Source: Eledone cirrhosa | Taxonomy: Eukaryota | Direction: 5' to 3' | DNA: 64,000 bases | NCBI GenBank assembly: GCA_964016885.1 | Contig: OZ024754.1 | Span: forward strand, 31,868,001 to 31,932,000 | Part shown: in pieces, positions 37,494-45,507 of the stretch | Numbering within the stretch: position 1 is the first letter of the stretch | Layout of the letters: the number at the start of each line of letters is the position of its first letter | Notes under the pieces: model-generated | Told to the model about the DNA's origin: nothing | The model's database searches: none | What the model saw: only the letters and a program-made list of their open reading frames with translations | Program-made: the position numbers and the translations under genes

Positions 37494-37611
37494 CTTAATG
37501 TTGTTGGGTAGATTTCAGGTGTATATAACCACAGACCTCCAAAGGCACCACTAATACCTATCATTCCAACCAGAGATAGAACTATTGTCGTAGTATTAAT
37601 GGCATCACTAT
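37494..37611 (-). CDS. SLC22-like exon (TM10, EIYPTTLR motif)
   Basis: tttacag|(D)SDAINTTTIVLSLVGMIGISGAFGGLWLYTPEIYPTTL(R)|gtaagt; 118 bp, phase 1 to 2. Confidence 0.9.
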
Positions 37612-40600
37612 CTGTAAATATAAAATATTCGTTAACACAGTCACTTCTACAGAATGTAGTACTAATGGCAGCACTATCTATAAATATAAAATATTCGTTA
37701 ACACAGTCACTTCTACAGAATGTAGTATTAATGGCATCACTATCTGTAAATATAGAATATTCGTTAACACAGTCACTTCTACAGAATGTAGTACTAATGG
37801 CATCACTATCTGTAAATATAGAATATTCGTTAACACAGTCACTTCCACAGAATGTACTATTAATGGCAGCACTATCTGTAAATATAGAATATTCGTTAAC
37901 ACAGTCACTTCTACAGAATGTAGTATTAATGGCAGCACTATCTGTAAATATAGAATATTCGTTAACACAGTCACTTCTACAGAATGTAGTATTAATGGCA
38001 GCACTATCTGTAAATATAGAATATTCGTTAACACAGTCACTTCTACAGAATGTAGTATTAATGGCATCACTATCTGTAAATATAGAATATTCGTTAACAC
38101 AGTCACTTCTACAGAATGTAGTATTAATGGCAGCACTATCTGTAAATATAGAATATTCGTTAACACAGTCACTTCTACAGAATGTAGTATTAATGGCAGC
38201 ACTATCTGTAAATATAGAATATTCGTTAACACAGTCACTTCTACAGAATGTAGTATTAATGGCAGCACTATCTGTAAATATAGAATATTCGTTAACACAG
38301 TCACTTCTACAGAATGTAGTATTAATGGCATCACTATCTGTAAATATAGAATATTCGTTAACACAGTCACTTCTACAGAATGTAGTATTAATGGCATCTC
38401 TATCTGTAAATATAGAATATTCGTGAACACAGTCACTTCTACAGAATGTAGTATTAATGGCATCACTATCTGTAAATATAAAATATTCGTTAACACAGTC
38501 ACTTCTACAGAATGTAGTATTAATGGCATCACTATCTGTAAATATAGAATATTCGTTAACACAGTCACTTCTACAGAATGTAGTATTAATGGCATCTCTA
38601 TCTGTAAATATAGAATATTCGTTAACACAGTCTCTTCTACAGAATGTAGTATTATTGGCATCTCTCTCAGTAAATATAGAATATTCGTTAACACAGTCAC
38701 TTCTACAGAATGTACTGTTAATGGCATCTCTCTCAGTAAATATAGAATATTCGTTAACACAGTCACTTCTACAGAATGTAGTATTAATGGCATCACTATC
38801 TGTAAATATAGAATATTCGTTAACACAGTCACTTCTACAGAATGTAATATTAATGGAATCACTATCTGTAAATATAGAATATTCGTTAACACAGTCACTT
38901 CTACAGAATGTACTATTAATGGCATCTCTCTCAGTAAATATAAAATATTCGTTAACACAGTCACTTCTACAGAATGTAGTATTAATGGCATCACTATCTG
39001 TAAATATAGAATATTCGTTAACACAGTCACTTCTACAGAATGTAGTATTAATGGCATCTCTATCTGTAAATATAAAATATTCGTTAACACAGTCTCTTCT
39101 ACAGAATGTAGTATTAATGGCATCACTATCTGTAAATATAGAATATTCGTTAACACAGTCACTTCTACAGAATGTAGTATTAATGGCATCTCTCTCAGTA
39201 AATATAGAATATTCGTTAACACAGTCACTTCTACAGAATGTAGTATTAATGGCATCACTATCTGTAAATATAGAATATTCGTTAACACAGTCTCTTCTAC
39301 AGAATGTACTATTAATGGCATCTCTCTCAGTAAATATAGAATATTCGTTAACACAGTCACTTCTACAGAATGTAGTATTAATGGCATCTCTATCTGTAAA
39401 TATAGAATATTCGTTAACACAGTCACTTCTACAGAATGTAGTATTAATGGCATCACTATCTGTAAATATAGAATATTCGTTAACACAGTCACTTCTACAG
39501 AATGTAGTATTAATGGCATCACTATCTGTAAATATAGAATATTCGTTAACACAGTCACTTCTACAGAATGTACTATTAATGGCATCTCTCTCAGTAAATA
39601 TAAAATATTCGTTAACACAGTCACTTCTACAGAATGTAGTATTAATGGCATCACTATCTGTAAATATAGAATATTCGTTAACACAGTCTCTTCTACAGAA
39701 TGTACTATTAATGGCATCTCTCTCAGTAAATATAGAATATTCGTTAACACAGTCACTTCTACAGAATGTAGTATTAATGGCATCTCTATCTGTAAATATA
39801 AAATATTCGTTAACACAGTCTCTTCTACAGAATGTAGTATTAATGGCATCACTATCTGTAAATATAGAATATTCGTTAACACAGTCACTTCTACAGAATG
39901 TAGTATTAATGGCATCTCTCTCAGTAAATATAGAATATTCGTTAACACAGTCACTTCTACAGAATGTAGTATTAATGGCATCACTATCTGTAAATATAGA
40001 ATATTCGTTAACACAGTCTCTTCTACAGAATGTACTATTAATGGCATCTCTCTCAGTAAATATAGAATATTCGTTAACACAGTCACTTCTACAGAATGTA
40101 GTATTAATGGCATCTCTATCTGTAAATATAGAATATTCGTTAACACAGTCTCTTCTACAGAATGTAGTATTATTGGCATCTCTCTCAGTAAATATAGAAT
40201 ATTAGTTAACACAGTCAATTCTACAGAATGTAGTATTAATGGCATCACTATCTGTAAATATAGAATATTCGTTAACACAGTCTCTTCTACAGAATGTACT
40301 ATTAATGGCATCTCTCTCAGTAAATATAGAATATTCGTTAACACAGTCACTTCTACAGAATGTAGTATTAATGGCATCTCTATCTGTAAATATAGAATAT
40401 TCGTTAACACAGTCACTTCTACAGAATGTAGTATTAATGGCATCACTATCTGTAAATATAAAATATTCGTTAACACAGTCACTTCTACAGAATGTAGTAT
40501 TAATGGCATCACTATCTGTAAATATAGAATATTCGTTAACACAGTCACTTCTACAGAATGTAGTATTAATGGCATCACTATCTGTAAATATAGAATATTC

Positions 40601-43600: not shown

Positions 43601-45507
43601 TAATGGCATCACTATCTGTAAATATAGAATATTCGTTAACACAGTCACTTCTACAGAATGTACTATTAATGGCATCTCTCTCAGTAAATATAAAATATTC
43701 GTTAACACAGTCACTTCTACAGAATGTAGTATTAATGGCATCACTATCTGTAAATATAGAATATTCGTTAACACAGTCACTTCTACAGAATGTAGTATTA
43801 ATGGCATCTCTATCTGTAAATATAAAATATTCGTTAACACAGTCTCTTCTACAGAATGTAGTATTAATGGCATCACTATCTGTAAATATAGAATATTCGT
43901 TAACACAGTCACTTCTACAGAATGTAGTATTAATGGCATCTCTCTCAGTAAATATAGAATATTCGTTAACACAGTCACTTCTACAGAATGTAGTATTAAT
44001 GGCATCACTATCTGTAAATATAGAATATTCGTTAACACAGTCTCTTCTACAGAATGTACTATTAATGGCATCTCTCTCAGTAAATATAGAATATTCGTTA
44101 ACACAGTCACTTCTACAGAATGTAGTATTAATGGCATCTCTATCTGTAAATATAGAATATTCGTTAACACAGTCTCTTCTACAGATTGTAGTATTATTGG
44201 CATCTCTCTCAGTAAATATAGAATATTCGTTAACACAGTCACTTCTACAGAATGTAGTATTAATGGCATCACTATCTGTAAATATAGAATATTCGTTAAC
44301 ACAGTCTCTTCTATAGAATGTACTATTAATGGCATCTCTCTCAGTAAATATAGAATATTCGTTAACACAGTCACTTCTACAGAATGTAGTATTAATGGCA
44401 TCTCTATCTGTAAATATAGAATATTCGTTAACACAGTCTCTTCTACAGAATGTAGTATTATTGGCATCTCTCTCAGTAAATATAGAATATTCGTTAACAC
44501 AGTCACTTCTACAGAATGTACTATTAATGGCATCTCTCTCAGTAAATATAGAATATTCGTTAACACAGTCACTTCTACAGAATGTAGTATTAATGGCATC
44601 ACTATCTGTAAATATAGAATATTCGTTAACACAGTCACTTCTACAGAATGTAGTATTAATGGCATCACTATCTGTAAATATAGAATATTCGTTAACACAG
44701 TCACTTCTACAGAATGTACTATTAATGGCATCTCTCTCAGTAAATATAAAATATTCGTTAACACAGTCACTTCTACAGAATGTAGTATTAATGGCATCAC
44801 TATCTGTAAATATAGAATATTCGTTAACACAGTCACTTCTACAGAATGTAGTATTAATGGCATCTCTATCTGTAAATATAAAATATTCGTTAACACAGTC
44901 TCTTCTACAGAATGTAGTATTAATGGCATCACTATCTGTAAATATAGAATATTCGTTAACACAGTCACTTCTACAGAATGTAGTATTAATGGCATCTCTC
45001 TCAGTAAATATAGAATATTCGTTAACGCAGTCACTTCTACAGAATGTAGTATTAATGGCATCACTATCTGTAAATATAGAATATTCGTTAACACAGTCTC
45101 TTCTACAGAATGTACTATTAATGGCATCTCTCTCAGTAAATATAGAATATTCGTTAACACAGTCACTTCTACAGAATGTAGTATTAATGGCATCTCTATC
45201 TGTAAATATAGAATATTCGTTAACACAGTCTCTTCTACAGAATGTAGTATTATTGGCATCTCTCTCAGTAAATATAGAATATTCGTTAACACAGTCACTT
45301 CTACAGAATGTACTATTAATGGCATCTCTCTCAGTAAATATAGAATATTCGTTAACACAGTCACTTCTACAGAATGTAGTATTAATGATATCTCTCTCAG
45401 TAAATATAGAATATTCGTTAACACAGTCACTTCTGCAGAATGTACTATTAATGGCATCTCTCTCAGTAAATATAAAATATTCGTTAACACAGTCACTTCT
45501 ACAGAAT
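37590..45507. repeat. 66-bp tandem array, ~120 copies, derived from the SLC22 intron/exon junction
   Basis: Plus-strand unit tagtattaatggcatcactatctgtaaatatagaatattcgttaacacagtcacttctacagaatg. The first unit overlaps exon 37494-37611. Confidence 0.97.

Follow-up and report, generated by a model that had tools for sequence, protein, structure and literature searches.

The window analysed in this study is a 64,000-nt stretch of the genome of the octopod Eledone cirrhosa (GenBank assembly GCA_964016885.1, contig OZ024754.1, positions 31,868,001 to 31,932,000 of the forward strand), in which one intron of a minus-strand gene of the SLC22 transporter family ends in a tandem array of copies of its own 3' splice site. 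The locus raises the question of whether these copies are ignored by the splicing machinery or are used to insert repeated peptides into the transporter. An initial annotation, made from the sequence alone, had offered both outcomes: a ladder of isoforms lengthened by multiples of 22 residues or, alternatively, a large set of decoy acceptors that the cell must ignore. The second proved right in outline, but it belongs to a class of repeats that has already been described under the names 'mirage' and 'exon stuttering'. The array is probably a minisatellite of this class. It is likely to be neutral and to be spliced out along with the rest of the intron, position 37611 being the predicted acceptor. 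Positions are those of the window unless the contig is named.

Structure of the array and of its host gene

Tandem Repeats Finder placed 120.0 copies with a period of 66 bp and 94% matches at 37590-45507, in agreement with the roughly 120 copies annotated initially; an array of this size is far beyond chance and fills most of a 10,287-nt intron. On the minus strand, each unit corresponds to the 44 nt preceding the acceptor at 37611 plus the opening 22 nt of the 118-nt exon 37611-37494 (-44 to +22), which is how the unit had first been described. The array and its immediate surroundings comprise the following features:

37590..45507, minus strand: tandem array, 120 x 66 bp, each unit made of 44 nt of intron end and 22 nt of exon start, with higher-order blocks
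37494..37611, minus strand: authentic 118-nt coding exon, encoding the end of the loop between transmembrane segments (TM) 9 and 10, TM10 and the PE..PT..R motif; CAG acceptor, phase 1; strong GTAAGT donor
37612..38601, minus strand: the 15 exon-proximal units, all of which retain AG
41968..42031, minus strand: single 64-bp unit (2-nt deletion), which shifts the frame of all units upstream
45506..45879, no strand assigned: degenerate GA-rich repeat adjoining the distal end of the array, a member of a high-copy genomic family

Cutting the array at a fixed anchor yielded 120 registers belonging to 30 distinct unit types, with unique types at both ends; 118 of the 119 spacings between registers measure 66 bp and one measures 64 bp (42031 to 41967). 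The earlier view that every unit is a 3' splice site held for the 76 registers that end in AG (75 CAG and one TAG) but not for the other 44, which read CTG or CTA followed by AGAGAGA, and the exact sequence CAG followed by ATAGTGAT is present in 49 of 120 registers. The AG-destroying variant CTGAGAGAG is more common in units away from the exon. The 16 registers nearest the exon, the real acceptor included, all retain AG, compared to a loss in 44 of the other 104. Exon-proximal units also differ less from the source sequence (1.7 differences) than units elsewhere (2.5-3.9), and the simplest cause of AG retention near the exon is this proximity to the source, with tolerance or use as further possibilities. 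The array is young (mean difference between units of 4.6%) and contains higher-order blocks with periods of 16 and 35 units, with 19 units exactly repeated. It arose when a stretch of 66 bp spanning the acceptor (-44 to +22) was duplicated and expanded in situ, probably via slippage or unequal exchange, with re-duplication of whole blocks.

A search of the 3.0-Gb assembly, which scores the best candidates only, found all 57 matches to the unit inside the array, which is of local origin and not a dispersed repeat. The unit is represented in contigs from three read runs of one sample (X1-X3), possibly the assembly's own source, with depths that add up to about 580, and the head-to-tail joint (66 bases back) occurs in one of the three as well as in one run labelled as another species. 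Contigs of run X1 assigned to AG-keeping and AG-lacking units, an assignment inferred from mismatch counts and variant rows, have depths of 363 and 219 (62:38), compared to 76:44 registers (63:37) in the assembly. Comparison with reads had been suggested at the outset, and the contigs support the unit, its tandem order and its variant make-up, the exact copy count being outside their reach. None of the contigs in the runs examined bridges the junction between exon and array; the unit is present in X1-X3 with the unique exon uncovered, and this exon gap, found in four of four runs, carries no evidential weight. The run labelled as another species contains one 96-nt contig (depth 2.7) with an exact unit and the head-to-tail joint over 37615-37680, reflecting a shared array, a mislabel or contamination, and is a lead only. 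Restriction-site-associated DNA runs of other samples contained no unit reads (three of three), a reduced representation that is uninformative on length polymorphism. The GA-rich family at the distal end of the array is very high-copy, with a summed contig depth near 60,000 in X1.

The closest homologues of the host gene are Octopus and Argonauta organic-cation-transporter-like proteins, and the O. vulgaris ortholog matches the structures of OCTN2 and OAT1 (E about 3e-51 to 3e-50). Full-length homology and an intact frame identify the gene, at the level of sequence, as an octopod SLC22 organic ion transporter. All of its exons were located in the window and the next 120 kb, and splicing in silico at 37611 gave open frames of 567-568 residues from four of five alternative first exons joined to the shared exons. 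A pseudogene reading was rejected on the basis of these intact frames. Internal exons range from 73 to 318 nt; in addition to the authentic exon, the exons relevant here are:

47899..47984, minus strand: upstream exon, 86 nt, TM9; its GTAAGA donor opens the array-bearing intron
34409..34481, minus strand: downstream exon, 73 nt, TM11
27541..27746, minus strand: last coding exon, TM12 and C-terminus
52445..52579, minus strand: exon of 135 nt
59772..60089, minus strand: exon of 318 nt, the longest internal exon

As annotated initially, the junction at 37611 sits between TM9 and TM10, in a short loop that the established 12-TM topology places extracellularly. The ortholog comparison proposed with that annotation found the repeat absent: in the O. 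vulgaris, O. sinensis and O. bimaculoides orthologs the TM9 exon runs directly into DSDAINT, and none of the 12 aligned proteins spanning the junction carries an insert (14 were aligned, two of which end before it). In addition, six of eight fetched paralog exons could be parsed, and in each the acceptor is a phase-1 AG displaced by one codon from this position. Because the orthologs lack an insert and the paralog exons agree, 37611 is identified as the ancestral acceptor, and the array is a later local expansion. Identity between the array-flanked exon and the O. vulgaris protein is 87.5%, within the range of neighbouring exons, and no close second copy of it was found in this genome, the next matches being 42-68% identical. 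Elsewhere in the gene, the donor GTTCGT at 52444 looks weak yet is needed for the frame, and three gene models, two of O. sinensis and one of O. bimaculoides, go wrong at this exon.

Upstream of the window lie five tandem first coding exons, each with an ATG and a donor and encoding the N-terminus and TM1 in about 46 codons:

contig 31968355, 31966998, 31963291, 31960625 and 31960006, minus strand: first-exon start codons; the copy at 31966998 is frameshifted

The RefSeq isoforms of two orthologs, those of O. sinensis and O. bimaculoides, are identical apart from their first 48 residues; the variable-first-exon layout, known from UGT1 and the clustered protocadherins, is therefore common to octopods. 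These exons are a separate lead and may be a better one than the array. Among the papers on octopus, SLC22 and alternative first exons that were screened by title and beginning of abstract, none dealt with the host gene.

Reading frame and coding potential of the repeat

In the frame of the exon the array contains exactly one stop and is open for 38 units:

40202..40204, minus strand: sole in-frame stop (TAA, read 40204-40202) inside the array

This stop had been recognised in the initial annotation, but the frameshift caused by the one 64-bp spacing had been missed, and the estimate of about 39 usable in-frame rungs was too high. When the 75 upstream AG registers were joined in silico to the upstream exon, only 29 kept the exon open and in frame, at lengths of 184 to 2626 nt, and 46 led to a premature stop, the latter as foreseen for acceptors upstream of the TAA. 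When every upstream AG of the array is considered, not just those at the registers, 52 of 596 keep the frame and leave it open, and 544 produce a stop or a frameshift. Two cysteines are encoded by 116 of the 118 full units and a sequon likewise by 116 of 118, consistent with the initial description; the unit peptide quoted there is indeed the commonest variant, but it is one of 22 and occurs in 26 of 118 units.

Of 25 distinct unit variants, 20 are replacements, four are silent and one is a stop, compared to a ratio of 153:38:7 for all possible changes, and all eight variants in the 15 proximal units are replacements. The repeat peptide thus shows no sign of purifying selection and probably evolves neutrally, in a test whose power is low given 25 variants, a young array and units that are not independent. 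The open frame of the array is not beyond chance. The intronic 44 nt stays open in 23% of shuffles, which, multiplied by the one-third chance of a length divisible by three, gives an open frame about 8% of the time. A second frame of the unit is likewise open, and at least 15 open codons precede the acceptor in two of six paralogs (read by eye). Two protein searches with the exon plus three units (5 and 9 proteins found) returned no protein carrying the repeat peptide, the SLC22 matches covering the exon only, in collections from which E. cirrhosa may be missing. Two matches to repeat-rich proteins were rejected as unrelated repeat proteins. The repeat is probably not coding, and the proposed ladder of n x 22-residue isoforms found no positive support: purifying selection is not apparent, the orthologs lack the repeat and most rungs would require exons of 0.4-2.6 kb.

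Choice among near-identical acceptors

The decoys most relevant to the choice of acceptor are the following:

37677 (TAG), 37743 and 37809, minus strand: in-frame decoy acceptors, giving exons of 184, 250 and 316 nt
38448..38513, minus strand: perfect decoy (first exon-like base 38469), matching the real acceptor from -44 to +22; a second one lies at 40449

Local sequence fails to single out the real acceptor, since these two decoys are identical to it from -44 to +22; 32 others are one base off. RNA folding was rejected as a selector because decoys and real site are alike in predicted folding, with a mean unpaired probability of 0.25-0.35 at nine decoys and 0.30 at the real site, and four units folding at -50.8 compared to -50.9 +/- 10.6 for units shuffled by mononucleotide. 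In the one unit examined there is no good donor: none of its six GT sites follows AG or fits a strong donor, and the best candidate, GAA/GTGACT, lacks the G at -1 and the G at +5 and has its T altered in 28 of 118 units. In Dscam-type cassette arrays each unit has its own donor, and in recursive (ratchet) sites AG directly precedes GT. A tandem cassette, mutually exclusive (Dscam-type) or microexon array was rejected because the units have no donor of their own, and recursive splicing was rejected because no AG immediately precedes GT in the unit examined; the acceptors in the array are followed by AT or AG, not GT.

Because sequence, folding and unit donors do not discriminate, whatever sets the real site apart must presumably lie 3' of the final copy, where the donor and 96 unique exon bases are found. 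In an intron of 10.3 kb, exon definition would then pair the sole strong donor, GTAAGT (37493), with the nearest AG, 118 nt away. Given that internal exons of this gene measure 73-318 nt, only the first three decoys are plausible rivals, and the nearest of them (37677) has changed from CAG to TAG. Were splicing to stray to an AG upstream of the 40204 stop, or to a unit's second AG, the transcript would acquire a premature stop and probably be degraded. In published counterparts, as far as the accessible text of these reports goes, the exon-adjacent site wins (mirages, the CBS 68-bp duplication, F7, LMNB2 and PDGF; PMC3087553, PMC3902484, PMC2630376, PMC1557585). It is likely, then, that 37611 is used alone or nearly so.

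Several observations weigh against this interpretation. Through 38 copies the unit keeps the exon's frame without a stop, and the selection test would detect little. Selection against competing decoys predicts the reverse of what is seen in the 16 nearest registers, all of which keep AG. The exons that the first three decoys would create (184-316 nt) fall within the gene's own range. The accessible part of PMC1557585 describes two pseudo-donors used in addition to the real one in the repeats of IFI6 and CBS intron 13. In addition, the precedents are mostly from vertebrates or lancelets, several are donor-side, and exon definition in octopods is assumed.

The strongest competitor keeps the real acceptor dominant and has the nearest one to three decoys (37677, 37743, 37809) used at a minor, measurable and unselected rate, yielding isoforms with 22, 44 or 66 added residues in the TM9-TM10 loop. 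The three sites are intact, in frame and stop-free, their exons are of ordinary size for this gene, and IFI6 and CBS offer a parallel in their two nearest pseudo-donors (PMC1557585, in part); against this, the nearest decoy has gone from CAG to TAG, the mirage studies reportedly detected no aberrant mRNA (PMC3087553, PMC3902484), and no insert-bearing protein appeared in the two protein searches, though the species may be absent there. On balance, such leakage is possible but unlikely. More doubtful still is that these intron-derived 22-residue modules, each with a cysteine pair and a sequon, are present in the outer TM9-TM10 loop in a substantial fraction of transcripts, as one to three modules per transcript and rarely more. 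If a short ladder of this kind were true, the locus would be a mirage caught in the process of becoming a coding repeat, with the 15 intact in-frame acceptors beside the exon as its sign, and it would show intron sequence entering a membrane protein as a new repeat module.

It is improbable that the array is harmful, which would mean that competing acceptors cause the 118-nt exon to be skipped with a shift of frame, the intron to be retained or splicing to be unproductive, such that long alleles lower transporter dose. The 544 of 596 upstream AGs that would yield a stop or frameshift and the occupation of most of the 10.3-kb intron speak for harm, as do F7 minigenes in which loss of near sites raises exon skipping (PMC1557585, in its accessible part). 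However, the coding sequence is intact, the exon is as similar to the O. vulgaris protein as its neighbours are (87.5%), no close second copy of it was found in the genome (next matches 42-68%), and both the depth of the reads and the proportions of variants are consistent with a viable animal carrying a large array. It is very improbable that the array encodes a functional ladder, in which as many as 29 in-frame isoforms would carry cysteine- and glycan-rich extracellular inserts: a unit length divisible by three, one stop in 120 units, an extracellular loop, and two cysteines and a sequon in 116 of 118 units are set against a neutral variant spectrum, an open frame expected about 8% of the time with a second frame open too, the loss of 37% of acceptors, a stop and a frameshift inside the array, exons of up to 2.6 kb and orthologs without the repeat. 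That the assembly falsely expanded the array is scarcely credible, even though the read contigs derive from a single sample, perhaps the one assembled, and none bridges the exon-array junction, in view of 30 distinct unit types arranged in higher-order blocks, unit contigs whose depths in three runs add up to about 580, joints in two runs and a 62:38 variant split compared to 63:37.

Whichever outcome applies, the locus is a natural test of acceptor choice: 75 further acceptors lie upstream of the real one, two of them identical to it over 66 bases and 32 with one difference. The products of the 29 in-frame decoys would escape decay and could be counted, and the array could therefore show how steeply acceptor choice declines with distance from the donor in a cephalopod.

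Neighbouring repeats and known systems

The surroundings of the array are rich in other repeats. A 36/30-bp minisatellite of 62 copies occupies 56079-58194; it is extremely strand-skewed, stays open for about 740 codons on the minus strand, and lies within an intron, away from any exon boundary. Five 95-bp copies, 99% alike, fill 48047-48521 and stop 62 nt short of the 47984 acceptor, and 48656-49090 is taken up by a 27/46/73-bp array; neither spans the junction. The last intron contains decayed sequence like the reverse transcriptase of a long interspersed nuclear element (31400-32500, minus strand), and a GC-richer block at about 9600-13300 resembles a retroelement. Farther along the contig, arrays with a period of 84 bp, as is usual in C2H2 zinc-finger genes, cluster at about 31994000-32047400 together with several other minisatellites. 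An unnamed protein from another source, a relative of exon 37494-37611, contains three tandem copies of the exon end and the sequence following it, probably a donor-side stutter of the homologous exon.

With respect to the SLC22 family (PF00083; OCTN2, OAT1, OCT1-3 and URAT1 in PDB), the host gene encodes 567-568 residues, is orthologous to the Octopus 'organic cation transporter-like' proteins, and differs in its tandem alternative first coding exons. A minisatellite at an exon boundary was found at none of 17 other transporter-match loci and in one of the 10 exons of the host gene, numbers too small for a genome rate. Some repeats located at boundaries of exons and introns are reported to give rise to alternative splicing (PMC2812944).

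Several human repeats place multiple splice sites beside an exon. In CBS c.844_845ins68, where 68 bp around an intron/exon acceptor junction are duplicated, the downstream copy is reported to be strongly favoured and the mRNA to be normal (PMC2630376); the duplicated junction is shared with the octopod array, but CBS has two copies instead of 120 and was tested experimentally. The junction-spanning variable number tandem repeats of F7 IVS7 (37 bp), IFI6 (6-16), CBS intron 13, LMNB2 and PDGF similarly present many identical splice sites with an end unit that spans the junction; they differ in lying on the donor side and in having 5-26 units. According to the available text, F7, LMNB2 and PDGF use the authentic site only, whereas IFI6 and CBS intron 13 also use the next two (PMC1557585). 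The 'exon stuttering' of chicken dot chromosomes, described for 236 introns of 115 genes, likewise copies the lateral part of an exon and its splice site through the adjacent intron (Hron et al. 2026, PMC12954441, as far as accessible). It has been described in birds, with enrichment in one chromosome class and length variation within populations. As a further point in common, several other introns of the host gene are rich in tandem repeats (36-44%).

The closest counterparts are the 'mirages' of amphioxus, reported for Adh3, the globins BflGb6 and BflGb9, troponin C and PGBD5 (PMC3087553, PMC3902484). Mirages are described there as minisatellite-like tandem copies of an intron end and exon start, with the authentic exon at the end of the array; the splice signal survives in many units and is lost in others, and a homogenised centre is flanked by distinct edge units. 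Length polymorphism or instability and undisturbed splicing are further features of the class. The array described here shows a head-to-tail minisatellite organisation, a junction-spanning unit, local origin, partial retention of the splice signal and concerted evolution with edge units. It differs in occurring in a mollusc and in a unit that is in frame and open for 38 copies, and its 120 units (7.9 kb) compare to 3-6 units in BflGb6, though other published arrays may be as long. The literature search, which had most subscription papers outside its reach, found no paper on cephalopod mirages. Taken together, these comparisons identify the array as a genuine acceptor-side mirage, both large and young, whose octopod SLC22 host gene is intact, and as a member of a repeat class already published.

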